Assembly: GCA_027324805.1 (NCBI GenBank)
Contig: DAHVRZ010000001.1
Coordinates: 2,945 to 66,944 of the forward strand
Length of the DNA stretch: 64,000 bases
Direction: 5' to 3'
Source: Candidatus Parcubacteria bacterium
GTDB taxonomy: Bacteria; Patescibacteriota; Minisyncoccia; UBA6257; 2-01-FULL-56-20
In this document: in pieces, positions 5,541 to 49,145 of the stretch
Position numbering within the stretch: position 1 is the first letter of the stretch
Layout of the letters: the number at the start of each line of letters is the position of its first letter
Notes under the pieces: generated by a model
The model's database searches: none
Seen by the model: only the letters and a program-made list of their open reading frames with translations
What the model was told of the DNA's origin: nothing
Made by a program: the position numbers and the translations under genes

Positions 5541-5634
5541 GTTGCTGGATGTTTTTCGGGGACGGTGCGCGAATGTCTTGCGTGCCTAGACGCTCGACGC
5601 CTTCGTGTCTCCATGGCTCCCCTCAAAGTATCCA

Positions 5635-6825
5635 TCAACCCACTTCGCGTCTGCTTGACTCATTTCCGATTCCCATTGCGGCGAAAACGGCGAGAGCGGA
5701 TACGGCAATGAAGAACGCGAACACGAACGCATACGACGAGTCTATCGTCCAAAGCCATCCCGCAATCGCCGATGCAGGAAGGTACACGAGGCCCGTTGCA
5801 AAATTGTAAAGTCCGATAGCGCTGCCGCGCCGTTCGCGCTCAAGATCGGCAATGAACGCTTTGCTCTGCGCTTCATCGATGCTGTAAAAGATGCCGAAGG
5901 CGATGAAAAGCACTACAACCTCCCACTTCGCGTGCGCGAACACGAACCCCGCCGACATTACGGCGTACACGGCATAGCTCAGCATGATCACGGCCCGGCG
6001 GCCGATCCGGTCCCCAAGTGCGCCCATGGGAGCTGATGCAACCACGAACGCGGCGTTGAAGAGGGCGTAGAGGAGAACGACGTCGGCTATGGAAAATCCG
6101 ACGTTATATGCCTTGAGAAGGAGAAAGCTGAAACTGAAATACGCGAGCGAGAACATGCCCGCCGGAATGAGATAACGCTTGAAGCCCGGGTCAAGCGTCC
6201 TCCACGCTTTGAAAATGTTATCTCGCTCATGCGGAATTCCGTGCCGTCCTTTTATGGCAAGAAGTACGACCACCGCGACGGCGGCAACGACCGCCGCCGC
6301 AACAAAGAGCACTTTGAATGCGTGTTCACTTTGTCCCATCCAGGAAAGGAGCGCGAACGCAAGCAGCGGCCCTGCGACCGCACCGGTCTTGTCGAGCGCT
6401 TTATGCACGCCGAACGACCAGCCGCGATTCCCCTCTGCGGCGACGTCGGCAAGCCAAGCGTCGCGCGGAGGACCCCGAAAGCTCTTGCCTAAACGTTCGA
6501 CGACCCGGAAAAGCGCAAGCAGAGAAACGGTGTCCGCGACGGTCAGGAAGAATTTCGCGAGAGCTGAAAAGCCGTACCCGATAACGGCAAGGGACTTCCG
6601 GTCGCCGGTGCTGTCCGAGAGCCATCCGGAGATATAATCGAGCGACGATGCGGAAAAATCCGCCAATCCTTCAACCACGCCAAGGAGCGCAGCGGACGCT
6701 CCCGTTATCACCGTGAAAAAGACGGAGAACACGGAGAAGATCGCCTCGGAGCTCACGTCGGTGAGCAAGCTCACCGCTCCGAGCTTCACGACGTCCGGGT
6801 GGACGCCGAACAATGGCTTTTTCAT
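5635..6825 (-). CDS. MFS transporter
   Basis: 396 aa, about 12 predicted TM helices. MFS motif-like GxLxDRxGRR (GALGDRIGRRAV). Confidence 0.8.
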   Translation of the reverse strand: MKKPLFGVHPDVVKLGAVSLLTDVSSEAIFSVFSVFFTVITGASAALLGVVEGLADFSASSLDYISGWLSDSTGDRKSLAVIGYGFSALAKFFLTVADTVSLLALFRVVERLGKSFRGPPRDAWLADVAAEGNRGWSFGVHKALDKTGAVAGPLLAFALLSWMGQSEHAFKVLFVAAAVVAAVAVVVLLAIKGRHGIPHERDNIFKAWRTLDPGFKRYLIPAGMFSLAYFSFSFLLLKAYNVGFSIADVVLLYALFNAAFVVASAPMGALGDRIGRRAVIMLSYAVYAVMSAGFVFAHAKWEVVVLFIAFGIFYSIDEAQSKAFIADLERERRGSAIGLYNFATGLVYLPASAIAGWLWTIDSSYAFVFAFFIAVSALAVFAAMGIGNESSRREVG

Positions 6826-17473: not shown

Positions 17474-17923
17474 ATGGAACCCTCATCCGCCCCCATCGCC
17501 GAGAACCGCCGTGCGCGGTTCGATTACGAAATAAAGGAAGCGCTCGAGGCGGGCATCGAGCTCGCCGGTTTCGAGGTGAAGAGCGCCAAGGCCGGCGCAT
17601 TCCAGATCGCGGGATCGCATGTGCTCATACGCGGCGGCGAAGCGTGGCTCGTGAATGCGCATATCCCGCCGTATCAGCCCAAGAATACGCCTCCCGATTA
17701 TGAAGAGGATCGCGCGCGGCGTCTGCTTCTTTCGAGCGCGGAGATCAAACGCCTGGAGGGCATCCTCCGCGACAAAATCCTGCACGCCGTCCCGCTGAAA
17801 GCCTATCTGAAGCACGGCCTCATCAAGCTTGAGGTGGCGGTGGCCCGCTCGCGGCGCAAATCCGACAAGCGCGACGTGCTCAAAAAACGCGCGCACCACC
17901 GCGAAATGCGGGAGGTGAAATAG
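17474..17923 (+). CDS. smpB: SsrA-binding protein SmpB
   Basis: 149 aa. IAENRRARFDYEI N-terminus and basic C-terminal tail typical of SmpB. Partner tmRNA found at 37590..37901. Confidence 0.9.
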   Translation: MEPSSAPIAENRRARFDYEIKEALEAGIELAGFEVKSAKAGAFQIAGSHVLIRGGEAWLVNAHIPPYQPKNTPPDYEEDRARRLLLSSAEIKRLEGILRDKILHAVPLKAYLKHGLIKLEVAVARSRRKSDKRDVLKKRAHHREMREVK

Positions 17924-33544: not shown

Positions 33545-34004
33545 AGTATTCGACATCACACTCCTGCTTAAAGGACTCCACGCTTCCCTCGAGGTGCTCG
33601 GCGGGATCGCCCTTTACGCCGTGAGTGCCGGCGGCATCCTCAATCTTGCAAATGCGCTTTTCGGCGGCGAGATCGGCGAGGATCCGCACGACCCGATCGC
33701 CAACTATCTCCTCGGCCTCGCGCAGACATTCGGCGCGAATGACCGTTCATTCGCCGCATTCTATCTTCTCACCCACGGCATCGCGAACGGCCTCATCGTC
33801 ATCGCCCTTTGGCGCGAAGAGATCTGGGCCTATCCCATATCATTCGCGGTCCTCGGCTCGTTCATCGTCTACCAGCTTTACCTGCTCACGCTCGGCTTCT
33901 CCTGGTGGATCGTCGCCATCACCGTGCTCGACGCCGCCATCGTCGCGCTTGTATGGCATGAATACGGCGTACTCAAGACGCGGCGCGCCGCAACGCGGGG
34001 ATAA
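33504..34004 (+). CDS. Hypothetical polytopic membrane protein (start uncertain, 33477 or 33504)
   Basis: 4 TM helices. Overlaps the previous gene by at least 41 nt in another frame. Confidence 0.45.
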   Translation: MTNPNSRTEQEIHKVFDITLLLKGLHASLEVLGGIALYAVSAGGILNLANALFGGEIGEDPHDPIANYLLGLAQTFGANDRSFAAFYLLTHGIANGLIVIALWREEIWAYPISFAVLGSFIVYQLYLLTLGFSWWIVAITVLDAAIVALVWHEYGVLKTRRAATRG

Positions 34005-34059
34005 AAAATCCCCGTCCGACATTCCTGTCGAGCGGGGCCTCTTCTTATGCTCCTGTTTT

Positions 34060-34680
34060 TTAACGGATCTCATGCGCCATGCGTCGCAAGCCTCCGGCGC
34101 ACAGTTCGAAGTGCCTGGAAAGCTTTTTGAAGAGCGGCGCTTCGCCGGGGTTTTCGACCTCATCGAACAATGCAACGATGAGATAACTTTCCTTCCCCGT
34201 CTTCACAATCTCGACGGGATCCTTGGGCTGGTCCACCCACCGCGTGCGGGAACTCCTGAAACTTTCCGGAAATACGCCCGCAAGAAATAATGCATAATCG
34301 CCGATATGTTGGCGCACATTGCGTTCCTCGCCGAACGATGCCGCACTCCCCAGAATCGGATCAGCCCTTTCAATAAGGTTCTCCATTCTGATAATCGGTT
34401 TTCCGCCGGTGTCGCAGATGCTCCACAAACGGTCGCTCGCGCAAAATTCGGCGAGGACCCCTGCGACATACTCCTGCATCCGTTCGTCGCGCAACTCAAT
34501 GAATGGGCTGAACGCCTGCCGCACGATCGGGTTGAAAAATGGCTTCAAATAGTCCGCCGTCTGTTTCACGATCCCCTCCGAAGACGAAGTTTCGCCCTGT
34601 GTCCTTCTTTCTAAATACCGCAAAGGCAAAAAGGAAGCAAGCCGGCCACATGGTGCGATCCGGGTCCCGCTCCAAGACAT
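34060..34680 (-). CDS. Hypothetical protein (start uncertain)
   Basis: 206-aa ORF. The first ATG leaves only 23 nt to the divergent ATP-grasp gene, so an internal start is likely. No recognisable motif. Confidence 0.4.
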   Translation of the reverse strand: MSWSGTRIAPCGRLASFLPLRYLERRTQGETSSSEGIVKQTADYLKPFFNPIVRQAFSPFIELRDERMQEYVAGVLAEFCASDRLWSICDTGGKPIIRMENLIERADPILGSAASFGEERNVRQHIGDYALFLAGVFPESFRSSRTRWVDQPKDPVEIVKTGKESYLIVALFDEVENPGEAPLFKKLSRHFELCAGGLRRMAHEIR

Positions 34681-34703
34681 GCACGCGATGGTATAGTTGA
34701 ATC

Positions 34704-35660
34704 ATGCCGACGCGGAAGAATATCATCATCTGGATAAAATATTCCCAAAAGGAAATCTTCTCGCCGTACTATCATAAAGGCCCATCATATCTCGCCCTTC
34801 TCGGGGAGCTGTACGGACGCGGACACCGCGTATTCCTCTCGTTCGGCGCCGCGGATCTGCACGGAGAAGATGCCTTCTTTTCTCCGGCGGCGGAATACCG
34901 GGACGGCGCCCTGCAGGCGCCGGAGTCCGCAGATCCGGTCCGCGCCGATGTTATTTATAACCTGGGCAATATCCCTGCTATTCATGGGGTGTCGCCCATT
35001 ACGAACACGCCTGCGTTCAGGACATTTTTCGCCTCAAAGTATGCTGCTTATGAACTTCTGCGCGAATTCTTCCCCCGGACGATACGCGTGAAACGGAAAG
35101 AGGATCTTTCGGCGGCGCTCGCGCAATTGCCCAATGAACGTGCGGTATTCAAACCGGACACAGGCACGAATGGACGCGGTGTAACGATGATGAAAAGAGG
35201 CGGGACGGCATTCAACGAAGAAATGTGCGCGATCATCGCCGAACCGGGAGGCGCGATCCTTCAGGAATTCGTTGACACAGCGTCGGGCATCTCTGGCGCA
35301 TGCGATTCATATCACGATCTGCGCATTGTCGTTATGAACAGGGGGGTCATCGCGCTCACGCACGTGCGCATCCCCGAACCCGGCAGTCTTATCGCCAACT
35401 ACGCACAGGGTGCGACCATCCGCGAACTTTCGCCGGCGGATCTCCCCAAAAGCGTCCTTACACTTCACCGCGCCGTTTATGAAACGATCGCCGCACGATT
35501 CCCGAATCCGATGTATACGATGGATGCGGGCATCGGCGCGGATGGACGGCCTCTTCTCTTTGAGATCAACGGTACGACAGCATTCCCCTGGCCCGGATTC
35601 GCAGGGAAAGAATTCTTTATAAAAACCCTGGCAGAGCACCTTGAGAAGCAGATGCTATAA
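34704..35660 (+). CDS. ATP-grasp domain protein of unknown specificity (RimK/glutathione-synthetase-like fold)
   Basis: 318 aa. Central KPDTGTNGRGV (Lys plus Gly-rich ATP loop) and C-terminal LFEINGTTAFP resemble ATP-grasp enzymes. Extended -10 TGGTATAGT ends 6 nt before the ATG (leaderless). Confidence 0.6.
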   Translation: MPTRKNIIIWIKYSQKEIFSPYYHKGPSYLALLGELYGRGHRVFLSFGAADLHGEDAFFSPAAEYRDGALQAPESADPVRADVIYNLGNIPAIHGVSPITNTPAFRTFFASKYAAYELLREFFPRTIRVKRKEDLSAALAQLPNERAVFKPDTGTNGRGVTMMKRGGTAFNEEMCAIIAEPGGAILQEFVDTASGISGACDSYHDLRIVVMNRGVIALTHVRIPEPGSLIANYAQGATIRELSPADLPKSVLTLHRAVYETIAARFPNPMYTMDAGIGADGRPLLFEINGTTAFPWPGFAGKEFFIKTLAEHLEKQML

Positions 35661-35679
35661 GGCGATGGTCCGAAGGTTA

Positions 35680-36630
35680 TTAATAATAATTTGATCTAAT
35701 CTTCGCCCAAGTCTCCCCTCGTTTTTTCATATCTTCCAATTTACGCTTCGCGGCATTAAGAGTTTCGAAACTCATTAAATTATGGAATGCCTCCGATGAT
35801 GTCTTATCGCTAAATGGACTAACGGCCGCCAAAAGGGCTCCCGTGGCAGCCAGACTTCCATAACCAAGTTTTGATAATATCTTTTTCGCGCCAACTTGAT
35901 TATTGATAGTGTTCTCCAGTTCCCGGATCACCTCGAAGGCTTTTTGATATTCCTCCGTGCTGATAGGTTCCGAATGCCTCGTTTCAAAATTGAAGCGTTG
36001 ACCCTTATTCCATGTCTGCGCACCGGCTGCGACCCTCATCGCATTTGCCTCAGCGAGCGCATCGTCTTCATTCAACCGACCCCTATCTTCGGAGGGGATG
36101 CCGATACCCGACTTTTGGGCCTCTCTGCGCTGCCGCTCTTTTACTTCTCTATAGTGCTCAATGAGGAGCTGTCTGCTTATGGGGCTGCTTCCTGGATACC
36201 ATTCCACCTCCCCGCCTCGAGGCTGTACAAGTTGAAGCGATAACCCTCCATCCTCGGTTCTGCAAATATAAAAATCGGTCTTGTATCCGCGTTTTGCGTC
36301 TGCAATGAAGCGATCCGCAATTTCCTCAGGGGGCAGATCAAGATCCGTGAAATCCGCACTATCAATTTCGGAATATATCGGAGTCTCTTTCCCGTCAATG
36401 AGCGTTTTGGCGCCCCGATGCTCCAGAAAGGGTCCCGCTTCCTTTTTGTTTATAAATACTTCTCCGCCTTCTTGGCCTTCCATAAAAGATTGCCGCTTCC
36501 CCATTGCCGCTTCTTCGGATGTTTTGGAAAGTTCGTTCATCACACTTTTCGATGATGAATTTTCCACGCTTTCCTGGGCGCGTTGTTCGAGATCGTTCTT
36601 CCAATCTTCAAATTTTTCTTCCGATGCCAT
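35680..36630 (-). CDS. Hypothetical protein, low-GC segment
   Basis: 316 aa, acidic N-terminal half. Lies in an about 45-48% GC segment within a roughly 60% GC genome. Confidence 0.5.
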   Translation of the reverse strand: MASEEKFEDWKNDLEQRAQESVENSSSKSVMNELSKTSEEAAMGKRQSFMEGQEGGEVFINKKEAGPFLEHRGAKTLIDGKETPIYSEIDSADFTDLDLPPEEIADRFIADAKRGYKTDFYICRTEDGGLSLQLVQPRGGEVEWYPGSSPISRQLLIEHYREVKERQRREAQKSGIGIPSEDRGRLNEDDALAEANAMRVAAGAQTWNKGQRFNFETRHSEPISTEEYQKAFEVIRELENTINNQVGAKKILSKLGYGSLAATGALLAAVSPFSDKTSSEAFHNLMSFETLNAAKRKLEDMKKRGETWAKIRSNYY

Positions 36631-36763
36631 GGTTTAATGTTAGCACAATGAGGTGGAGCCGACCCGGACAGGTGGCAAACTCTGATCGCGGAGCTTTATA
36701 AAGCGCTCTTGCTCACGGGGTCGGATTTGGATTAAGGCAACGCAAACTCCTAGCCATCAACCT

Positions 36764-37069
36764 TTAATTCACCTTCCAGGGCGGAGAAAATTTTCCTTCC
36801 GTCGAGAGAACCTTTCCGCGCCTCCACGTATACCATGCCATCGGGAGAAGAATGATCACAGGGAACATCGCCACTAATAGCACAACAAACGTATGCAGGA
36901 GGAACGAAAAAAATAATCCTCCCAAGAAGATGATCACAGCGAACACAACGTAAATAATGGCATTGATTCTCATTTTCCAACCGTCTACCTTATAAACAGT
37001 AGAAACTACTTCTTGACCAACGCTCTCTGGTTGATTTTGCTGCTGCCCGTCGGGCTGTTGTGGATCCAT
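36764..37069 (-). CDS. Small membrane protein, low-GC segment
   Basis: 101 aa. Gln/Pro-rich N-terminus then two TM helices. Confidence 0.45.
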   Translation of the reverse strand: MDPQQPDGQQQNQPESVGQEVVSTVYKVDGWKMRINAIIYVVFAVIIFLGGLFFSFLLHTFVVLLVAMFPVIILLPMAWYTWRRGKVLSTEGKFSPPWKVN

Positions 37070-37073
37070 AAAT

Positions 37074-37526
37074 TTAGTGAGTGGCTGCGGTCGACGAAAT
37101 TCCCGCAGGCGTAGATGGGGGCATATCTTCGCAATGCCGTTTTACGGCAAAATAATACACGATGGCACCAATGATACCAAAAAGAAGAATAATGATTATC
37201 CAAAGTGCCTTATCATGGATCGGATGGCGGATGGCATGAACAAGCATCCATATCCAAAGGATCAGCGCAAGTATTGCGACCACGATGACAAACACGACTA
37301 TACCGAGTTCCAAACCAGCAACCCACGCTATCGGACCAAAAACTTGGCTACATGGCACAGGTTGGCCATTAACCATGCAATTCGACGAGGATGAGACTAT
37401 CGTCGTCTGGGCATGCGCTGCCAAAACACCCAACCAATTCATACAATCATTATAACACTCCCGGAAATCCAGTTTCCCTTCCGCCCAACTCCCCTCCTTC
37501 TGGGAGGAAATAGTCCAAATTGGCAA
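37074..37526 (-). CDS. Membrane protein with PLD-nuclease N-terminal-like (PLDc_N) motif, low-GC segment
   Basis: 150 aa. LWIWMLVHAIRHPIHDKALWIIIILLFGIIGAIVYYFAV resembles the cardiolipin-synthase N-terminal (PLDc_N) small-protein family. Confidence 0.5.
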   Translation of the reverse strand: MPIWTISSQKEGSWAEGKLDFRECYNDCMNWLGVLAAHAQTTIVSSSSNCMVNGQPVPCSQVFGPIAWVAGLELGIVVFVIVVAILALILWIWMLVHAIRHPIHDKALWIIIILLFGIIGAIVYYFAVKRHCEDMPPSTPAGISSTAATH

Positions 37527-37554
37527 ACTCGAAATAATGCACTATCCATAACGA

Positions 37555-37579
37555 AAATCGAACTCTTTTGGAGTTCGAT
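37555..37579 (-). terminator. Terminator hairpin immediately 3' of tmRNA
   Basis: Perfect 10-bp inverted repeat AATCGAACTC-TTTTG-GAGTTCGATT located 11 nt downstream of the tmRNA 3' end on the minus strand. Confidence 0.7.
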
Positions 37580-37589
37580 TCCGGGACTG

Positions 37590-37901
37590 TGGAGACGGGC
37601 GGAGTCGAACCGCCGTGTAATGATGGTGACGTGGGCCGTCTACGGGCGTAGTCTAAACGAGTTTAGGCAGAAATGGTCCTAGGTTCTCGCCCTGCGCATA
37701 GGGCCGTCTGCGCGAGGCCAGTCTCCTTGTATAAGACCGGTATCAGCTCAAGAGACCCGAACTGGCCGATCCCGAACTAGGCGAAAGCGAAGCTCGGAGC
37801 TGCAACTTTGGAGTTGGCAGTTATAGATTGTGCGGCGATTACGTCGCCGCCATCGGCCCGCAAACCCACGGAAGATCATTATCGAAGCCGGGTGCGTCCC
37901 C
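37590..37901 (-). ncRNA. ssrA: tmRNA (SsrA), standard one-piece form
   Basis: 5' GGGGACG pairs with 3' CGUCUCC-A, including the G3:U70 wobble (alanine identity). 3' tRNA-like T-arm GGCGG-UUCGACU-CCGCC. Internal tag reading frame GCC AAC UCC AAA GUU GCA GCU CCG AGC UUC GCU UUC GCC UAG gives (A)ANSKVAAPSFAFA*. 5' region GGGGACGCACCCGGCUUCGAUAAUGA resembles E. coli GGGGCUGAUUCUGGAUUCGAC. smpB present at 17474. Confidence 0.85.
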
Positions 37902-37962
37902 AATATTAAGATGCACATCCCCATGACAAATAACCGGATTCTCTAAAGGGAAATGCTTGGTT

Positions 37963-37991
37963 ATTATACTATATTTTTGAACTATTTGCAA
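37963..37991 (-). promoter_or_regulatory. Sigma-70 promoter driving the tmRNA precursor
   Basis: TTGCAA - 17 nt - TATAAT on the minus strand, about 60 nt upstream of the mature tmRNA 5' end (leader presumably removed by RNase P). Confidence 0.7.
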
Positions 37992-38070
37992 TTTACTCGC
38001 GCCAAGGAAACGGCCGCTCCTCCGGTGGTATAATAAAACTGCAAAGGTCGTAATACGGGCTTTCCTTATT

Positions 38071-38307
38071 ATGGACACCTCTTCAGTACCGGAACAGGGC
38101 ATGAAGCATGAGATGCACGGCACGATCTGCCGCCATCCCCGCCATAGAGCGGTTCCCATTCTCGCGATCATCATCGGATTAGAGTTTTTCCTTGCCGAGA
38201 TCGGCGTGCTCACGTGGGAGTTTGTGAATGTCACTTGGCCGCTTCTTCTCATCGTTGCCGGCATCGTCGGTCTTTCCGGCCATCACTATCATTATCACGA
38301 CCAGTAG
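38071..38307 (+). CDS. Possible small membrane protein (low confidence)
   Basis: 78-aa ORF with two hydrophobic helices and a His-rich C-terminus (HHYHYHDQ). No clear RBS. Overlaps the tmRNA promoter region on the opposite strand. Confidence 0.25.
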   Translation: MDTSSVPEQGMKHEMHGTICRHPRHRAVPILAIIIGLEFFLAEIGVLTWEFVNVTWPLLLIVAGIVGLSGHHYHYHDQ

Positions 38308-38355
38308 TCGCGATGGGTGTAAAAATAAAAACATCGTCACAGTGGACGATGTTTT

Positions 38356-38973
38356 TTATTTATCTGCCGGCTGTCCCTGGGGTTCGTCCTCTCCATCCTT
38401 CTCCTCCGCTACCTTCTGGATGTTGGCCCGCCTGAGAAGTTCCTGCTGAAGCCACTCCGCGAGATCTTTGTCGAGCGCCGGGAGGATACCCTCGCTGTCG
38501 TCCTCCCCCGGCCTCCCGACATCCTCATGTCCCGCGGTAAGGATCATGATTCTCGAGAGTCCCATCATTTGGAATGAAAGGTCGCGCTCGATGTCAACGT
38601 CCTGGATCTGGCGGTATGGAATGGCGATCTCTTCCTTTTCGAGAATGCCGCGCTTGATCTTCAGCGAATCTTCGCCCAGTGCAAATTTGTAATTTTTATA
38701 AACAAGCAATGAGACAAAAAAGACGAGGCCGAACATGACGACAAAAAGGATCGCGGAAATCCCCGCACCGATCATGGCATAGGCCGCAAGGTTGCCGAAA
38801 GGCGTTGCGGCGAGTGATTTCTGGGTTCCCATCACAAGGAACACCGCCGCAAGGATAAGGAACACTCCCGCGCCGTTCACACGCTCAAAAACGAATATCC
38901 AGAGGGTCTTCTTTCCCAGTGTGCGATACTGCTCTTCGGGAATTCCGGGATGCGTTATCGGTCCTTCTTCCAT
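38356..38973 (-). CDS. Bacterial PH-domain membrane protein (YdbS/DUF304, bPH_2)
   Basis: 205 aa from the internal ATG. Two TM helices then IKRGILEKEEIAIPYRQIQDVDIERDLSFQMMGLSRIMILTAG (bPH_2 signature). The longer track ORF (to 39627) overlaps infC and is rejected. Confidence 0.7.
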   Translation of the reverse strand: MEEGPITHPGIPEEQYRTLGKKTLWIFVFERVNGAGVFLILAAVFLVMGTQKSLAATPFGNLAAYAMIGAGISAILFVVMFGLVFFVSLLVYKNYKFALGEDSLKIKRGILEKEEIAIPYRQIQDVDIERDLSFQMMGLSRIMILTAGHEDVGRPGEDDSEGILPALDKDLAEWLQQELLRRANIQKVAEEKDGEDEPQGQPADK

Positions 38974-39021
38974 TTTGATTATTTTACCACACTCAAGTAC
39001 AATGGGATTTAAGGAACATCC

Positions 39022-39561
39022 ATAGATTATCCATCGGGTAAGTTTTCCACTCCCATTCCCAAACCCCGCATCAACAGCCAAATAACAGCCCCCGAACTCC
39101 GCGTGATCGGAGAGGACGGAGCAAATCTCGGTGTCATGCCTCGCAACGAGGCTCTTAAGCTCGCCCGCCCGGACGACGGGGTTGACCTTATTGAGATCTC
39201 CGCAAACGCCAACCCGCCCGTCGTGCGGCTCATGAACTACGATAAGTTCCGCTACGAGGAAGAAAAGCGGGTCAAGAAAGAGCGGCTTGCCCAAAAAGGC
39301 ATCGCCTTGAAGACGGTGCAGATCAGCGCCCGCGCTGCCGAGAATGACCTTATGGTCCGCGTGCGACAGGTGGAGAAGTTCTTCGGACAGGGACATCCTG
39401 TCGAGATCACCATGCGTCTCCGCGGCCGCGAAAAGCGGAATCGTGATTTTGCCATGCAGAAGCTTCACGACTTTCTCAAGCTCCTGCCCATGGAATACAA
39501 GAAGCTCGGTGAACCCCGCTTCCTCGGCAACGGCCCCGCCGTCCAGATAGCAAAAAAATAA
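39022..39561 (+). CDS. infC: Translation initiation factor IF-3, non-AUG start (ATA at 39022 or ATT at 39055)
   Basis: Conserved N-terminal segment KPRINSQITAPELRVIGEDGANLGVM lies upstream of the first in-frame GTG (39103). In-frame ATA has SD AAGGA 6 nt upstream. IF-3 genes classically use AUU/AUA/AUC starts for autoregulation. C-terminal domain intact. Confidence 0.8.
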   Translation: MDYPSGKFSTPIPKPRINSQITAPELRVIGEDGANLGVMPRNEALKLARPDDGVDLIEISANANPPVVRLMNYDKFRYEEEKRVKKERLAQKGIALKTVQISARAAENDLMVRVRQVEKFFGQGHPVEITMRLRGREKRNRDFAMQKLHDFLKLLPMEYKKLGEPRFLGNGPAVQIAKK

Positions 39562-39626
39562 GACTTCTGGTGCATATTGACAATATAGCACTTTATGTGT
39601 TATTATTGTCCTAGGAGGGTAATTCA

Positions 39627-39827
39627 ATGTTCACAGCAAATCCGGCACTTCTCATGTCCGGAATGATTCTCTGTTTTGTGCTCTTACTGATCCGCAAGCC
39701 GCGGATCCTTGCCATGTGCCCCGGCATCTTTGGGGCAATGGTGTTCGGTGCCGGTATCTACGCCGCCATCAACTGGAGCCAGATAACAACCACAGGTCAG
39801 CAGTTCATCGCGACCTATCTTCGATAG
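39627..39827 (+). CDS. Small membrane protein (66 aa) encoded between infC and rpmI
   Basis: Strong RBS GGAGGG 7-8 nt upstream of the ATG. Two hydrophobic helices. Confidence 0.55.
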   Translation: MFTANPALLMSGMILCFVLLLIRKPRILAMCPGIFGAMVFGAGIYAAINWSQITTTGQQFIATYLR

Positions 39828-39858
39828 AAGTCTCGACCGCCGCCGAATCAGTCATCCA

Positions 39859-39892
39859 GGGCAGGAACCCCACGTTCCTGCCTTTCGTATTT
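39859..39892 (+). terminator. Intrinsic terminator/attenuator hairpin upstream of rpmI-rplT
   Basis: GGCAGGAAC-CCCAC-GTTCCTGCC followed by TTTCGTATTTT. Confidence 0.6.
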
Positions 39893-40085
39893 TATGACGG
39901 CCCTAATTGGCACACCGATTTCATATGGAAAGCTGCATGGATCGTGGGTTCGCGCCTTCCCCCGCCAGATACCGAGGGGCCGTTCGGGATTTGCATAATT
40001 CGAAATGGTGTGATATCCTCTTACCTATTGAGCAGGAGATGATCCCTCGACTCGAGGGATTTTTATAGAAAACCCCAAGAATTCC

Positions 40086-43585: not shown

Positions 43586-44866
43586 CTATCGTTCAGCATC
43601 ATACAGCGCCATAATCTCCGCCGGCGAAAGCGCACGACCATACACGCGGATATCATCTTCCCATCCGTTGAAAAGCTGCCCGCTGTACCCCGACCCAATA
43701 TAAATCGGGAGGTTGTTCGTATTGATAGGGGTGTTGTAGGCAACAGAAAACTGCTGGGAACCATTCAGATAAATCCGCCTATATGCTCCGTCGTAGACGC
43801 CACACGCGAACGTCCATGTGTTGGCATTGATTGCGGGAGTTCCGGAATCGCCGTAACCTGTATCGTTTACTGCAAAATAGATATGGCCCCCATTAATGTA
43901 GAGATACCACAGCGAATTGGACGCTCCGCCCCCGAACCCTTTTGTTATTGCCCGCTGGGCGACAGAGGTATTGTTTGGATATATCCAAACACATACGCTC
44001 ACGGAATTTGTGACGTTATAGGCCGATATGGCAGGCACGGAAATATATGTGGTCGCCCCATCGAATGCTCCCGCATACGATCCCACCTTACCTCCAATGT
44101 AGTAAGTGCCGTTTTGGCCGACCGCCGTGCCGATCCAAGCGCCATTGTTCCCGTTGATCCCCTCGAGCGCAACCGTACCCGATCCCTCGTTGAGCGGCCA
44201 ATATCCCACCAGCCCCGAAGGATTGTAAAGGAGGGATATTGAAGGGACGCCCGCGGAAATGATTTCTGGGAAAAGGCTTGTCTGCGGATTGTTCGCGTAG
44301 TTCTGTTTGTACTTTGAAGATTCGAAGTCCGCGGTGGCCTCATATTGAGATCCGCTCATGCCGTAGGAATAGAAGAGTCCGGAGGAGGTTTGATTCACGG
44401 GATCCACAGGGAGAGAACCAAATGGGGCACCGGCGGAGATCTGACTGAAATTAACAGGGAGCCATCCGGTACCGTTCGTGGCGCGGTATGTTGCGGAAGA
44501 GGCACAGTTCCATGACTGACCGGCACCCAGTGCTGGGAGGTCAAGATCCCCGCAGGTCGAAGAGCTGTCCGATATGGACACATATGCAAGGGAGGATGTT
44601 CCGAGGGAATACGAGGGTGTCCCCGAGAGGTCGGTTTGGTAAAGGTTCAGGGCGGAGCCGAGGGTTGCCATATCGGAGACCCGGTTTGCATCCCTCGATT
44701 GAGCGAGGAGCTGACTAGGATTCAAGACAAGGACTACAACAACCGCGAGGATCGCGATAATGGCGATCACAACAAGAAGCTCAATAAGAGTGAATGCGGA
44801 GCGGAAACGCGATGGCCGATCATTACATTCCGCCGCGCCAAGAAAGCGTATATATTTCATGTACAA
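43586..44866 (-). CDS. Type IV pilin-like protein with C-terminal LamG-like (concanavalin A-like lectin) domain
   Basis: N-terminal RSA/FTLIELLVVIAIIAILAVVVVLVLNPSQLL prepilin signal (Ala at -1). C-terminal about 200 aa GYWPLNEGSG...SLWYLYINGGHIYFAV...IRVYGRALSPAEI resembles Laminin_G_3. Confidence 0.8.
   Translation of the reverse strand: MYMKYIRFLGAAECNDRPSRFRSAFTLIELLVVIAIIAILAVVVVLVLNPSQLLAQSRDANRVSDMATLGSALNLYQTDLSGTPSYSLGTSSLAYVSISDSSSTCGDLDLPALGAGQSWNCASSATYRATNGTGWLPVNFSQISAGAPFGSLPVDPVNQTSSGLFYSYGMSGSQYEATADFESSKYKQNYANNPQTSLFPEIISAGVPSISLLYNPSGLVGYWPLNEGSGTVALEGINGNNGAWIGTAVGQNGTYYIGGKVGSYAGAFDGATTYISVPAISAYNVTNSVSVCVWIYPNNTSVAQRAITKGFGGGASNSLWYLYINGGHIYFAVNDTGYGDSGTPAINANTWTFACGVYDGAYRRIYLNGSQQFSVAYNTPINTNNLPIYIGSGYSGQLFNGWEDDIRVYGRALSPAEIMALYDAER
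44741..44787. repeat. About 47-nt near-identical repeat (pilin N-terminal coding segment), copy B
   Basis: GCGAGGATCGCGATAATGGCGATCACAACAAGAAGCTCAATAAGAGT matches 1372..1418 with 4 mismatches. Confidence 0.7.
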
Positions 44867-44883: not shown

Positions 44884-47361
44884 TTATTCCGCAACAAAAT
44901 CAAACGTATCATTCTGATATATGAGCTTTACCCTGTTCCCTTTGAGTACCTTCCTCCCAAGGATCGCCTGCGAGAGCGGCGCACGGACCTTCTCGTCGAT
45001 CACGCGGCGGAGCGGGCGGGCACCGTATGCCGGATCATAGCCGAGCTTCGCGATCTCCTTGAGCGCCTCCGGCGCGAAATCGAGATAGATACCCTTCTCC
45101 TTCATTATGGAAACCAGCTCTTGCACATTCAACTGCACGATCTTCATAAGATCATCCGGATCGAGGTTTTTGAAAATAATGATCTTCGAAAAACGATTGA
45201 GGAGCTCCGGTTTATATACATCCGTGAGGCGCGCCTTCACATACTCGGCGATCTGAGACATGGTCTCTCCCTGGCCAAGCGCCTGGTTGATGATATCGGA
45301 ATGCGCATTTGAGGTTGCGATGATGATCGTATTCGTAAAATCCACGACACGGCTCAGATTGTCGGTGAGCCGGCCGTCATCGAGGACCTGGAGGAAAAGA
45401 TTGAGGATATCGGGATATGCTTTCTCGAATTCATCGAGCAGGATAAGGCTGTAGGGCTTCGAGAGGACGGCATCGGTAAGTGCGCCGCGTACCGAACCGT
45501 CAGGCGAGCCGATGAAGCGGTAGAAGCTGGTCTTATCCTGGTATTCCGTCATATCGAAACGAACCATCATCTTCTCCGATCCGAACTGGATCTCGGCAAG
45601 TATCTTTGCGAGTTCGGTCTTGCCGACGCCGGTCGGCCCCACAAAGAGGAAACTCGCGATGGGACCGCCTTTACGCGTAAGGCCGGAGCGATATTCGCGG
45701 ATGGCATCCGCCACCGCCTTCACCGCCTCTTCCTGATCCACAAGCTTCCGGTGAATAAGATCCTCCATGTGAAGCAATTTCTCCGCTTCATCGCCTTCGG
45801 CCTCATGCATCGGGACGTTCACCCTTTCCTCGGCGACCGTGGTCACCCGTTCCGGACCGAGCCTTTTCTCACCGCGCCGTTCCGCGTCTACGAGTGCACT
45901 CTTCAAAAGCTCTTCCGCGCTCGAAGGGAGGAATTTATCATGCATATACTTCTTGGCGAGCATCACGGCGCGTTTGATCGCACCAAAACTTATTTCGATA
46001 TCCGATTCATCCTCGAGAAGTACGCTTTCATACGTGAGCACACGCTCCGCCTCCTCTTCCGTAATCTCGGCCACCGGAATCGTTTCAAAAATGGCAACGA
46101 AGTCGCTTCGCGGTTCGATGAGCTGTTTGAACTCGCGCGGATAGGTCGAGCCGACGACGGGAAACCGATTTTCCATAATAATGGGCATCAGGGCGTCGGC
46201 GGCGGAAAGATATGCGGTTCCCGAAGTGCGTACCAGATTATGGAGATCGGGGATATAAAGAATGACATTGCCCGCCTCGAGTATCTCTTCCACGATCATT
46301 TTGAGCCGCGCTTCAAGTTCCTCGGGTGCCGCGCCGGCAACGAGACTCGACAAATGGAGTCCCACCAGCCGTCGGTCAAAGAGCCCGCTCGGCACGTTAT
46401 CCTTTACAAGCGCGAGCGCGAGGTGATGTATGATCGATTCCTTGCCGATACCCGGCTCGCCGATGAGGATCGCATTGGGATTGACGGGCCTCGCGAGTGT
46501 CTCGATGAGCCTCCCGTATTCCGCGCCGTGGCCGATGAGGAATCCTGTTTGCCCGTTGCGGGCAAGGTCGGTATAATCGGTGCCATAATGGTCGAGCGTC
46601 GGCGTCGGACGCGCGGTCCATGCACGGTTCATTACACGATGCTTCGCCACGCGATGTGTGCCGATGCCAAAACCGCCGAGGGCACGCGGCAGTCGATGGA
46701 ACCACCCGTGACTCACGAGCGATCCAAAAAGGAGTGCGCGTTCCAGGTCACCCGGTTCGATCGAGAACTGATTGAAGAGACGATCCATCGCATCGCCTCC
46801 CGCCTTCGGAAGGGCCGAGAAAAGGTCCGGCGCAGTGATGAATTCGTGACCCGCCTTCACCGCTTGGGCGAATGCCGCCGTAAGGAGCGCTTCGATCGTC
46901 CGGATGGTCTCCTCCCTCGATGCCTTACCGGCAGGTCGATCCGGTGCATCCGACTCATTGAACAATGCGTCGAGCTTCGTCTTGAAATCCTCCGGCTTCA
47001 CATCGAGACGTCGCAGGCCTTCCGCGATTACCGGCGACTCAAAGAGTCGCCGCGCAAGTTCAAGGGAAAAATCCTTCTTTGTGATGCTGCTGCGGTCAAG
47101 CGCACGATCAATAGCCCCGAACGCCGCAGGCGATGTCACGCGGGAGAGATTCACCCTCCCGTCGCCGAACGATATCTCCGATATCGGCATATCCCCTTGA
47201 CCACGATGGACGACCAGGTCACCCGAGAAAAGAAGAAGGAACAGCCCGATCCACACCAAAAAGTGAATGCCCGAAAAAAGGAATGCGAACATCGCCGCCA
47301 CGAGGACAACGCCGACGATCCAGCTTGCCACGCGGACAATCATACGGCCCCCGACCGTCAT
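44884..47361 (-). CDS. Membrane-anchored Hsp100/Clp-family AAA+ ATPase (ClpC/ClpB-like) with degenerate first nucleotide-binding domain
   Basis: Two N-terminal TM helices then Clp_N-like repeats. D1 Walker A GEPGIGKES and Walker B ILYIPDLH are degenerate. D2 Walker A GPTGVGKT and Walker B LILLDEFEKA are intact. No IGF/IGL ClpP loop and no long M-domain. The track ORF extends to 47418, overlapping the upstream gene. Confidence 0.85.
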   Translation of the reverse strand: MTVGGRMIVRVASWIVGVVLVAAMFAFLFSGIHFLVWIGLFLLLFSGDLVVHRGQGDMPISEISFGDGRVNLSRVTSPAAFGAIDRALDRSSITKKDFSLELARRLFESPVIAEGLRRLDVKPEDFKTKLDALFNESDAPDRPAGKASREETIRTIEALLTAAFAQAVKAGHEFITAPDLFSALPKAGGDAMDRLFNQFSIEPGDLERALLFGSLVSHGWFHRLPRALGGFGIGTHRVAKHRVMNRAWTARPTPTLDHYGTDYTDLARNGQTGFLIGHGAEYGRLIETLARPVNPNAILIGEPGIGKESIIHHLALALVKDNVPSGLFDRRLVGLHLSSLVAGAAPEELEARLKMIVEEILEAGNVILYIPDLHNLVRTSGTAYLSAADALMPIIMENRFPVVGSTYPREFKQLIEPRSDFVAIFETIPVAEITEEEAERVLTYESVLLEDESDIEISFGAIKRAVMLAKKYMHDKFLPSSAEELLKSALVDAERRGEKRLGPERVTTVAEERVNVPMHEAEGDEAEKLLHMEDLIHRKLVDQEEAVKAVADAIREYRSGLTRKGGPIASFLFVGPTGVGKTELAKILAEIQFGSEKMMVRFDMTEYQDKTSFYRFIGSPDGSVRGALTDAVLSKPYSLILLDEFEKAYPDILNLFLQVLDDGRLTDNLSRVVDFTNTIIIATSNAHSDIINQALGQGETMSQIAEYVKARLTDVYKPELLNRFSKIIIFKNLDPDDLMKIVQLNVQELVSIMKEKGIYLDFAPEALKEIAKLGYDPAYGARPLRRVIDEKVRAPLSQAILGRKVLKGNRVKLIYQNDTFDFVAE

Positions 47362-47398
47362 CCGCAGACGCGGATCGTCGAGATAGAGCGAGGAAGGA

Positions 47399-47773
47399 TC
47401 AAAAGGTCTTTGCCGCATAATAAAGGGTTATAAAGGGGATTATGAGCCAAATCGCATATATAAAAAGAAAACAGACGGCAATCACGAGATAGGCGAACAA
47501 CCCGACAATAATGCGGCCTGTCCGGAAGATAAAACCCAGAATGCGTCCTACAAATGTGTAGTCCTTATAGAGTGGTTCAAAGAGGTGCCGAAGCGTCACC
47601 CGGAGCGCAAGCGACCGGTCGGCCGAAGCGATTGCCGCCATAAACCTCCTCCCGAATGCACGGGAGCCGTCGATATACCAATGATGGAAAAACTCGAATA
47701 TCCGGTAGAAAAAGCGTCCCGCGAGGTACGTCACACTGAAATCCATATCATAATCATAAATCCCAAGCTCCAA
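47399..47773 (-). CDS. Possible membrane protein upstream of the Clp ATPase (low confidence; TTG or internal ATG start)
   Basis: 124-aa ORF with two C-terminal hydrophobic helices. Overlaps the clp-like start region. Confidence 0.3.
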   Translation of the reverse strand: MELGIYDYDMDFSVTYLAGRFFYRIFEFFHHWYIDGSRAFGRRFMAAIASADRSLALRVTLRHLFEPLYKDYTFVGRILGFIFRTGRIIVGLFAYLVIAVCFLFIYAIWLIIPFITLYYAAKTF

Positions 47774-48430
47774 TTAGAACAGGCTCCCCTGCCGGATATC
47801 GCGGGCGCTGCCATTCTCCGTTTTTTCGAACGGCGCCGCAGTGACTTTTGATTCCACGGCCGGAGGCAGCTCGGTCGCCAGCTTCCCCGCAAGCACTGCG
47901 GGTATCTTTTTGAAATCTTCGCGAAGCACCTTCATCATTTCCGTTGAGCGAAGCGCCGCCGCAGGGTGATATACCGGAAACACGATACGACCATCGATCC
48001 GGAGCGGCCGTCCATGATCGCGCGTCATCTTGGCCGTCGGTACGAAATAGTTCATGGCAAAGCGCCCGAGAGTCACAATAAGTCCCGGCGCGATAATGGC
48101 GATCTGACGCGTAAGATAGGGTTGGTATGCTTCGATCTCCGCAGGGGACGGATCGCGATTCTCGGGCGGCCGGCGCTTCACAATATTCGTTATATACACA
48201 TCCTCGCGCTTCCATCCGAGTCCGCGGATCATGTCGTCGAGCAGCTGTCCGCCGCGTCCGACGAACGGACGCTTGAGCCGATCTTCGTTCGCCCCGGGCG
48301 CTTCGCCGATGAACATCACCGCACAGCTCACACTCCCTTCGCCGAATACGAGATTTGCCGGCCCTAAAGGAAGCGATGTGTCGCCGGCCATCTCTTCCTC
48401 AAGCGCCCCAAGCTCCGCAGCTTTATCCAT
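47774..48430 (-). CDS. udg: Uracil-DNA glycosylase, family 4
   Basis: GEAPGANEDRLKRPFVGRGGQLL family-4 UDG motif. Start at MDKAAELG with TATAAT 6 nt upstream (leaderless). Confidence 0.88.
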   Translation of the reverse strand: MDKAAELGALEEEMAGDTSLPLGPANLVFGEGSVSCAVMFIGEAPGANEDRLKRPFVGRGGQLLDDMIRGLGWKREDVYITNIVKRRPPENRDPSPAEIEAYQPYLTRQIAIIAPGLIVTLGRFAMNYFVPTAKMTRDHGRPLRIDGRIVFPVYHPAAALRSTEMMKVLREDFKKIPAVLAGKLATELPPAVESKVTAAPFEKTENGSARDIRQGSLF

Positions 48431-48473
48431 TCTTCTATTATAAGGAATCGTACCCCGCTTCAAAAGCGATCGG

Positions 48474-49145
48474 CTATTTGAATGCAGGCCGCCTGATCAC
48501 CTCTATCACCTTTCCATTCACAAAAAAGTCATCGTCCGCGCCCACATAGATCGGCGCAAAATCCTCCGTCGAATCGGATACAAGAACGATCTGATTGTGT
48601 GCGGCGTCTTTATGAAACCGCTTCACGTTGGCGGCTCCGTCGATCACCGACAAGACCACGTCACCGTCGTGCGGCGTACGATCGTCAGCATCCACTATGA
48701 GATAATCGCCGTTATTGATCGCCTCCCCGTGGACTTTCGCCTGGTTCATTGAAAAGCCGTCCGCGCGCACCGCGAAAAGTCCTTTATTATTCTGCCTGTG
48801 CACCAGCGAATTCGATACGCGGAGATATCCCGCCACATTTTCTTCGGCCAAAACCTCCGCCGGACCGCAGTTCGCCACGCCGACGATGGGAATCTGAAGA
48901 AGACGTTTCCCATTTTCCAAAAAGCCGCCTATCCAGCCCTCCTTCGGCTTTTCTATCGTGCCATTGACGCGATCGATCTTCAGGAGGCCCCTTTTTTCGA
49001 GCTGCTGGAGATGATGTTTTATCTTCTGCGCCGATCGGTCCCCCACAAGCTCTCCTATTTCCCGTAAAGAAAGGCTGGAAATATTGCGATTTTTTGCGAG
49101 GCGCAGGAGTTTTTCCTGTATGGGATGGAGTTTTTGGGTTTCCAT
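48474..49145 (-). CDS. lexA: LexA repressor (SOS regulator, S24 peptidase)
   Basis: N-terminal winged HTH. C-terminal S24 domain with the catalytic Ser motif (ADGFSM) and Lys (VKRF). Predicted Ala-Gly cleavage site (VANCGPAE). Confidence 0.9.
   Translation of the reverse strand: METQKLHPIQEKLLRLAKNRNISSLSLREIGELVGDRSAQKIKHHLQQLEKRGLLKIDRVNGTIEKPKEGWIGGFLENGKRLLQIPIVGVANCGPAEVLAEENVAGYLRVSNSLVHRQNNKGLFAVRADGFSMNQAKVHGEAINNGDYLIVDADDRTPHDGDVVLSVIDGAANVKRFHKDAAHNQIVLVSDSTEDFAPIYVGADDDFFVNGKVIEVIRRPAFK

Follow-up and report, generated by a model that had tools for sequence, protein, structure and literature searches.

In a stretch of 64,000 nucleotides from a Candidatus Parcubacteria bacterium (contig DAHVRZ010000001.1, assembly GCA_027324805.1), called the window below, we find a two-gene module made up of a 115-residue membrane protein and a class-I Hsp100 ATPase. 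The open reading frame (ORF) of the ATPase, hereafter the Hsp100, runs from 44884 to 47418 on the reverse strand with the stop codon included and encodes 844 amino acids. An identical public protein, P0001, lies on a 224-kb contig. We lean, with modest confidence, towards reading this locus as a Paceibacteria-specific membrane-bound AAA+ remodelling complex that would work independently of ClpP and Hsp70, with its second ring (D2) as the sole motor and its first ring (D1) as a scaffold, and preferably by a non-processive or non-threading action. What makes it unusual is the combination: a membrane anchor, a partner and a signature linker have been gained, while catalysis by D1, the tyrosines of both pore loops, the M-domain and the ClpP loop have been lost. 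Neither a membrane-anchored Hsp100 nor this Paceibacteria family was found described in the literature searched.

The domains follow one another as a transmembrane hairpin, a Clp N-domain, D1 and D2. Tandem AAA+ modules and a C-terminal ClpB_D2-small domain, present both in Pfam searches and in full-length alignments to ClpA, ClpB and ClpC structures, place the protein in class-I Hsp100. Pfam matched AAA_2 at residues 586-745 (E=1e-47), ClpB_D2-small at 752-831 (4e-22) and AAA_lid_9 at 454-540, and gave weak P-loop matches in D1. The closest solved structures in the PDB were T. thermophilus ClpB (1e-113), S. aureus ClpC (7e-111) and E. coli ClpA (2e-88). The top NCBIfam models were ClpB, ClpA, ClpK/G and ClpV, and every equivalog cutoff was missed by a wide margin, with scores of 485.8 against 1232.1 for TIGR03346 (ClpB), 427.9 against 993.15 for TIGR02639 (ClpA) and 324.6 against 1350 for PRK11034. 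The source records name the homologues "ATP-dependent Clp protease ATP-binding subunit ClpC/ClpA", a label that these membership tests contradict, and hundreds of public entries are probably misannotated. A peptidase domain, including the M41 domain of FtsH type, was not found in the Hsp100 with Pfam and NCBIfam, and Pfam detected no nucleic-acid-binding domain.

Residue-level comparisons were made with ClpB (1qvr) and ClpC (6em8) as references. Three family sets, all of them from Parcubacteria/Paceibacterota, were used: 120 close homologues, 39 divergent representatives at 50% identity, and 76 full-length ORFs taken from genomes that represent species, to which all counts out of 76 refer. The first-pass annotation, made from the letters of the window, had read the Walker motifs of D1 as degenerate, with a Glu in GEPGIGKES and a PD in ILYIPDLH, and the alignments bear out both readings. 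In Walker A the Lys is kept in 75 of the 76 sequences and the next position, the Mg-binding Thr/Ser of active rings, is Glu in 70, Asp in 5 and Gly in 1. In Walker B the Pro is found in 75/76, followed by Asp (61), Glu (10) or Asn (4), so that the exact P-D pair occurs in 61/76. The ERRF that carries the arginine fingers of ClpB and ClpC is replaced by [VA]G[AMI]F across the family, their LPDKAIDL at sensor-2 by LPSSAEEL, and their pore-loop-1 sequence AGAKYRGEFEE by AGA[PA]P-EE, with an aromatic residue in a single member (1/76). Because these altered residues are near-invariant across the family, they are features far beyond chance. Among the 39 divergent representatives the P-loop of D1 decays further, several having lost the Lys, and in none are the DE or the arginines regained. 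By its sequence, then, D1 lacks every element for hydrolysis and substrate gripping, yet it is under strong purifying selection, with conservation of 0.72-0.91 per 20-residue block among the close homologues. It would be a structural or assembly ring, and since the P-loop Lys is kept, D1 of the core clade may bind nucleotide without hydrolysing it. The substitutions are conventional within their own family, which matches no described subfamily model.

D2 presents the opposite picture. The seven residues K600, T601, D662, E663, N704, R742 and R801 are each present in 76/76, covering Walker A (GPTGVGKT), Walker B (LLDEFEKA), sensor-1 (ATSN), the arginine finger (NRF) and sensor-2 (GARPLRR), and conservation per block is 0.8-0.97. 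The family-wide residue counts support one catalytic and one dead ring, as had been proposed. The further claim that the D2 motifs are intact stands for these five elements but fails for the GYVG of pore loop 1. Here the flanks align unambiguously with ClpB (RIDMTEY with RFDMTEY, LIGAPPG with FIGSPDG, and GQLTEAV with GALTDAV, the Hsp100 given before ClpB), and between them the ClpB sequence YVGYEEG is reduced to SVR in the window's Hsp100 and to three non-aromatic residues family-wide. The loop has a length of 12 in 75/76 genomes and an aromatic residue in 1/76. In the core clade an Arg or His is conserved in the shortened loop, which divergent members do not keep; pore loop 2 (DDGRLTD...R) is conserved. 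The loss of the pore-loop-1 tyrosines from both rings makes classical threading doubtful, and with it the earlier designation of the protein as an unfoldase. One divergent member, P0230 (850 amino acids, 32% identity), has degenerate motifs in D2 as well (GPIGVGKK and LILLNNLEK) and appears to be a fully dead copy.

Membrane tethering, the other main element of the first-pass annotation, is upheld by hydropathy and by structure prediction. Residues 22-72 are the sole strongly hydrophobic stretch of the Hsp100. An AlphaFold model of residues 1-275, built from a 29-sequence family alignment (mean predicted local distance difference test score, pLDDT, 84), folds them into a helical hairpin, H22-47 and H52-70, at pLDDT 92-98. 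The first transmembrane helix (TM1) is strongly hydrophobic in 76/76 sequences, with a median Kyte-Doolittle value of 2.07; the second (TM2) is moderately so, with a median of 1.59 and a minimum of 0.74. The hairpin is preceded by a juxtamembrane motif, PR[LF][RK]M-T-x-x-G-R-x-x-V-R, in which M20, G24 and R25 are found in 76/76 and R29 in 75/76. The basic N-terminus and the short turn would leave both ends of the hairpin in the cytoplasm, as the ATPase requires. The upstream ORF carries a membrane segment of its own; since the hairpin shares its reading frame with the ATPase and recurs in homologues, it belongs to the Hsp100, and the alternative that it is part of the upstream ORF is ruled out.

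The Clp_N repeats that had been placed after the transmembrane helices are recovered in the predicted fold and missed by Pfam, in which Clp_N is absent from the Hsp100 at E<0.1. AlphaFold builds residues 91-235 as an eight-helix domain. The 50 best Foldseek matches in the PDB all belong to N-domains, of ClpC, ClpC1, ClpB, ClpA, Hsp104 or Hsp101, at probability 1.0, with target TM-scores of 0.58-0.75 for isolated N-domain chains and identities of 10-18%. A family hidden Markov model (HMM) searched against the PDB matched the N-domains of ClpC, Hsp101 and ClpB weakly (E=0.17-0.66). It is thus by its predicted fold alone that the domain counts as a Clp N-domain. Between it and D1 the N-terminal half reaches its highest invariance, in the sequence H-R-[IV]-M-N-R-A-W-T-[SA]-R-P-T-P-x-L-D following P..LGGF, with residues 260-268, 270, 272, 275 and 276 invariant in 72-76 of the 76 genomes. 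In the isolated model this linker comes out as disordered (pLDDT <50 at 247-264), and it may form an interface with D1, a neighbouring subunit or the partner protein. Its LGGF superficially resembles a ClpP-docking tripeptide, yet it lies on the membrane-proximal side.

Two structures by which the relatives of the Hsp100 are connected to other machines are missing, in agreement with the initial reading. ClpB and ClpC align to the Hsp100 in two pieces and ClpA in one; residues 417-523 of ClpB and 420-461 of ClpC have no counterpart, which means that the M-domain is absent. In the D2 segment equivalent to the ClpP-docking loop, the alignment to 6em8 opens a gap in the Hsp100 opposite the ClpC loop, an [ILVMA]G[FL] tripeptide occurs in 0/76 genomes, and the length is fixed at 33, which is ClpB-like. 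Searched with tblastn, neither the window nor 86 related loci of at most 22.6 kb each yielded any match for clpP, clpS, clpX or ftsH beyond D2 itself. The window also contains a transfer-messenger RNA (tmRNA) gene (37589..37901, reverse strand) with the tag peptide ANSKVAAPSFAFA, and an SmpB-like ORF (17474..17923, forward strand); the G+C content is 0.49-0.53 across the tmRNA region (34001..40000) against 0.56-0.60 in the rest of the window. The tag ends in ...FAFA, which we take to resemble the ...YAFA of the Mycoplasma/Mesoplasma type. That type evolved for Lon where ClpXP is absent, according to a passage of PMC8403727 that cites Gur & Sauer 2008. By this analogy the tag ending hints indirectly that this organism may lack ClpXP.

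The most informative piece of context, missed by the first-pass annotation, is the obligate membrane partner. Counted from a conserved ATG, the partner ORF encodes 115 amino acids, and its last 20 nt lie inside the Hsp100 ORF, over the start codon of the latter. In 80/80 loci from species-representative genomes an HMM of its homologues found it as the next gene upstream of the Hsp100, in the same orientation, and it also accompanies Hsp100s of only 36% and 42% identity to the query (hhalign probabilities of 99.8% and 98.6%). In the five gene-called loci having the partner, the two genes overlap by 4-26 nt in every case (5/5), and they are probably translationally coupled. The homologues are about 115 residues long, are all named "hypothetical protein" and come from the same taxa as the Hsp100 family. 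The sequence has a basic, aromatic-rich helical part, presumptively cytosolic, with the motifs FFHHWY.DGSR and PLY.DY..IGRILG..FRT.R, and then a 33-residue uncharged hydrophobic helix; the predicted structure is a helical hairpin (pLDDT 83.5). Nothing significant was matched in Pfam, NCBIfam, PHROGs, PADLOC or the PDB (HMM and Foldseek) or in BFVD (Foldseek). We also considered whether the membrane segment of the partner is a duplicate of the Hsp100 hairpin, and rejected this on comparison. The coordinates of the module and its parts are collected in Table 1.

Table 1. Coordinates in the window of the Hsp100, its domains and motifs, and the partner protein.
Feature	Position	Strand	Basis
Membrane-anchored two-ring Hsp100-family ATPase, 844 amino acids	44884..47418	-	ORF list; Pfam, NCBIfam and PDB searches
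N-terminal transmembrane hairpin, residues 22-70 (TM1 ~22-47, turn of 4-5 residues, TM2 ~52-70)	47209..47355	-	hydropathy, AlphaFold
Divergent Clp/Hsp100 N-domain (predicted), residues ~91-235, two four-helix repeats	46714..47148	-	AlphaFold, Foldseek, weak HMM matches
Family-signature linker, residues 244-276	46591..46689	-	conservation in 76 genomes, AlphaFold
D1 AAA+ module, residues ~277-540, putative pseudo-ATPase, M-domain insertion absent	45799..46590	-	alignment to 1qvr and 6em8
D1 Walker A GEPGIGKES, residues 320-328, Lys kept, Glu for Mg-binding Thr/Ser	46435..46461	-	alignment
D1 pore-loop-1 remnant LVAGAAP-EELEARL (ClpB: LLAGAKYRGEFEERL), tyrosine lost	46303..46344	-	alignment
D1 Walker B VILYIPDLH (ILYIPDLH = residues 386-393), hhhhDE changed to hhhhPD	46240..46266	-	alignment
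D1 arginine-finger position DFVAIFE (ClpB: ALERRFQ), both arginines lost	46084..46104	-	alignment
D2 AAA+ module with ClpB_D2-small, residues ~545-844, catalytically intact by sequence	44887..45786	-	Pfam; 76-genome conservation
D2 pore loop 1 GSPDGSVRGALT (ClpB: GAPPGYVGYEEGGQLT), tyrosine lost, 4 residues shorter	45475..45510	-	alignment
D2 segment equivalent to the ClpP-docking [ILV]-G-[FL] loop of ClpA/ClpC/ClpX, residues 704-736	45211..45309 (start 45301..45309)	-	alignment to 6em8
Partner, orphan 115-amino-acid membrane protein	47399..47746	-	ORF list; homologues; 80-locus HMM scan

How might such a module work? In the reading that we prefer, the Hsp100 would assemble into a hexamer whose N-domain face lies against the inner face of the membrane, where it is held by the N-terminal hairpins. 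D1 would be a non-hydrolysing assembly scaffold and D2 the only motor, and the machine would work with, or on, the small partner as an ATP-driven, membrane-associated remodeller. Its action would be neither that of a soluble disaggregase like ClpB nor that of an unfoldase feeding ClpP like ClpA and ClpC, and membrane or membrane-proximal proteins are the most plausible class of substrates. A published account of ClpB cryo-EM describes substrate contact through conserved pore-loop interactions (PMC6546751). Torsin, an AAA+ protein of the HCLR clade that is Clp-D2-like, has no pore-loop motif; threading was judged unlikely for it, and it depends on the membrane cofactors LAP1 and LULL1 (PMC4999309). 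The role of the tyrosines in ClpB and the precedent of Torsin, together with the want of aromatic paddles in both rings, lead us to favour a non-processive or non-threading conformational action, in the manner of Torsin and its membrane cofactors, over hand-over-hand translocation.

Several points weigh against this remodelling complex. About half of the members have a TM2 of only moderate hydrophobicity, so that in some of them the anchor could be re-entrant or monotopic. Non-aromatic loops could still translocate some substrates, and with pore loop 2 of D2 conserved, threading is possible. At locus L004, whose Hsp100 (P0138) shares 48% identity with the query, ftsE and ftsX lie directly upstream (4385..5987, forward strand) and the partner was not found within 6 kb; this is the sole exception seen, and it suggests that the coupling to the partner may not be absolute. 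Finally, hexamer formation, orientation and the interaction with the partner are all steps that we infer.

The main rival, which is the idea of the first-pass annotation, is a classical threading dislocase or quality-control unfoldase, comparable to Msp1 or the FtsH ATPase, in which D2 would pull membrane or pilin-like proteins from the bilayer through the pore for subsequent handling by FtsH or Lon or for refolding. An N-terminal anchor does put the N-domain and the pore entrance at the membrane, the retained N-domain fold is the one that ClpA, ClpB and ClpC use to bind substrate or adaptor, D2 is catalytically complete with a conserved pore-loop-2 region, and the tmRNA tagging system in the window implies proteolysis pathways. 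We nevertheless regard this rival as rather unlikely. The pore-loop tyrosines, which contact the substrate in ClpB structures (PMC6546751), are gone from pore loop 1 of both rings in 75/76, the D2 loop being four residues shorter as well, and both a protease domain and the ClpP loop are absent. The adjacent pilin, on which the suggestion of pilin handling in the first-pass annotation depended, is not a conserved neighbour: it is specific to this genome, an MFS-like gene takes the place in 40/66 relatives, and no pilus-assembly gene is linked. Pilin handling was rejected as unsupported for that reason. A ClpC- or ClpA-type ATPase that docks ClpP in a non-canonical way is much harder to sustain, and we consider it very improbable. 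It could draw on the names in the source records, on a domain order that is ClpA-like in having no M-domain and aligns to TIGR02639 as a single stretch, and on the conserved L-G-G-F in the linker between N-domain and D1. That motif, however, is membrane-proximal and so placed that no ClpP barrel could dock there, and the segment where ClpP does dock is of ClpB-like length and has its tripeptide in 0/76. The equivalog cutoffs of ClpA and ClpC are far above the scores (427.9 against 993 for ClpA), clpP was not found in the window or the 86 loci by tblastn, and a pore stripped of its tyrosines would be poorly suited to feeding a protease.

The neighbourhood of the module raises a different idea, a membrane-anchored motor for base-excision repair or for the import of foreign DNA. 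A uracil-DNA glycosylase (UDG) gene lies upstream in 52/72 loci and PolX and NUDIX genes downstream in 46/60 each, LexA is adjacent in the window, and the core clade keeps an Arg or His in the shortened D2 pore loop. The whole region is syntenic, however, so that the linkage is not specific to the pair of Hsp100 and partner; LexA is adjacent in only 4/62, the pore-loop residue is not conserved in divergent members, and the Pfam search gave no nucleic-acid-binding domain. This role is therefore improbable in our judgement. Least credible of all is a ClpB or ClpC relic that is decaying in a reduced genome and no longer does mechanical work, or a membrane protein with a structural role alone. The further degeneration of D1 in divergent members, several of them without the P-loop Lys, and the degenerate D2 of P0230 would fit such decay, but the seven D2 catalytic residues are present in 76/76, D2 stays at 0.8-0.97 per block, and full-length ORFs with a conserved partner are kept in at least 200 species.

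The remodelling complex shares features with several known systems. With ClpA, ClpB and ClpC the Hsp100 has in common a homologous N-domain fold, D1, D2 and D2-small, and the same type of Walker A and B, sensor-1, arginine finger and sensor-2 in D2. Like ClpA it has no M-domain, which ClpB and ClpC possess, and like ClpB it has no ClpP loop, whereas ClpA and ClpC carry the IGL/VGF loop. It differs from all three in its integral anchor, the apparently dead D1, the loss of both pore-loop-1 tyrosines, the HR[IV]MNRAW linker and the small partner. In FtsH and Msp1/ATAD1 an N-terminal transmembrane anchor sets a hexameric ring on the membrane, a geometry for the extraction of membrane proteins; these are single-ring AAA proteins of the classical clade whose pore loops are aromatic, and in FtsH a protease domain is present as well. 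The anchor of the Hsp100 is alike, but the protein has two rings and is without both an aromatic pore loop 1 and a protease domain. A division into one scaffold ring and one motor ring recalls NSF, p97 and Pex1/Pex6, which belong to a different AAA+ clade and whose inactive rings generally still bind ATP via intact P-loops. In D1 of the Hsp100, by contrast, the P-loop Thr, Walker B, the arginine fingers and the pore loop are all replaced. Plasmodium HSP101 has active rings with canonical pore-loop tyrosines and threads its cargo. It is an Hsp100 that acts at a membrane with membrane-pore partners in the PTEX translocon (PMC6550532). HSP101 differs from the Hsp100 in being soluble and docking on EXP2/PTEX150. 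The likeness to Torsin extends to the HCLR/Clp-D2 clade, membrane association, the absence of the pore-loop consensus and the use of membrane-protein cofactors (PMC4999309). Torsin, however, is a luminal protein with a single AAA+ module whose arginine finger is supplied by the cofactor, whereas D2 of the Hsp100 owns its arginine finger (R742), and the partner here is a tiny helical protein unrelated to LAP1 and LULL1. The analogy is one of working principle only.

The family is confined in its known distribution. An N-terminal family profile matched 283 representatives (50% identity) among 1.84 billion, 113 of them at E<=1e-30. All full-length representatives have 782-851 amino acids and the same N-terminal module, and other architectures were not seen. 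Members occur in at least 202 of about 185,600 species genomes, and the specifically named carriers are all Parcubacteria/Paceibacterota, Minisyncoccia, Liptonbacteria, Harrisonbacteria or Paceibacter. Many "binchicken" metagenome-assembled genomes with the Hsp100 (L009, L017, L030 and others) are titled "uncultured Candidatus Saccharibacteria bacterium", a label that is probably generic or incorrect. A defence system or mobile element was considered and rejected: PADLOC gave only partial D2 matches (PDC-M37B, DolB) and none for the partner, PHROG a generic Clp family, and no family members were found on viral contigs.

The usual gene order is UDG, partner, Hsp100, an MFS-like gene of 218 amino acids in many relatives, PolX and NUDIX, with L20 on the opposite strand. 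The wider region, from RuvA, a Mur ligase, beta-CASP, LDcluster4 and a permease to L20 and IF3, is syntenic in these small genomes, and we therefore read the linkage to UDG, PolX and NUDIX as general genome conservation and not as a functional link. The MFS-like gene, which encodes a half-size membrane protein (at L001, 12525..13181, forward strand), starts 2 nt past the Hsp100 stop in most relatives, and its product is a possible third component of the module. In the window its place is taken by a gene particular to this genome, 17 nt downstream of the Hsp100 (43586..44866, reverse strand), for a type IV pilin-like protein with an N_methyl motif fused to a Laminin_G_3/concanavalin-like lectin. 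On the other side lies a UDG of family-4/5 type (47774..48463, reverse strand), and directly upstream of it a LexA-like repressor with an S24 peptidase and a LexA DNA-binding domain (48474..49145, reverse strand). About 5-10 kb downstream of the module, relatives carry a reverse transcriptase with bAvd, resembling a diversity-generating retroelement, and large serine recombinases (L003, 20993..22389; L001, 17510..19096). A scan for promoters and terminators gave matches no commoner than in shuffled sequence.

Hsp100 proteins are the textbook soluble threading machines, their mechanism being defined by tyrosines in the pore loops and by ClpP or Hsp70 as partners. Against this background a bolder and tentative proposal is that the Hsp100 and its partner form a membrane-embedded non-threading machine, in which six transmembrane hairpins and the helices of the partner would be driven by D2 while D1 and the HRIMNRAW linker provide a fixed scaffold. 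Such a machine would add a new functional class to the Hsp100 family. If the proposal is true, hydrolysis by D2 would drive gating, put together or take apart a membrane complex, or remodel lipid or protein at the envelope of these episymbionts, and the family would stand as a bacterial parallel to the Torsin-cofactor principle, having arisen independently from a ClpB/ClpC ancestor. The family is a natural experiment that asks which tasks an Hsp100 ring can still perform when it does not thread. As a further point of interest, it is a candidate for an envelope function peculiar to its lineage, in ultra-small bacteria that depend on hosts and whose membrane biology is little understood.

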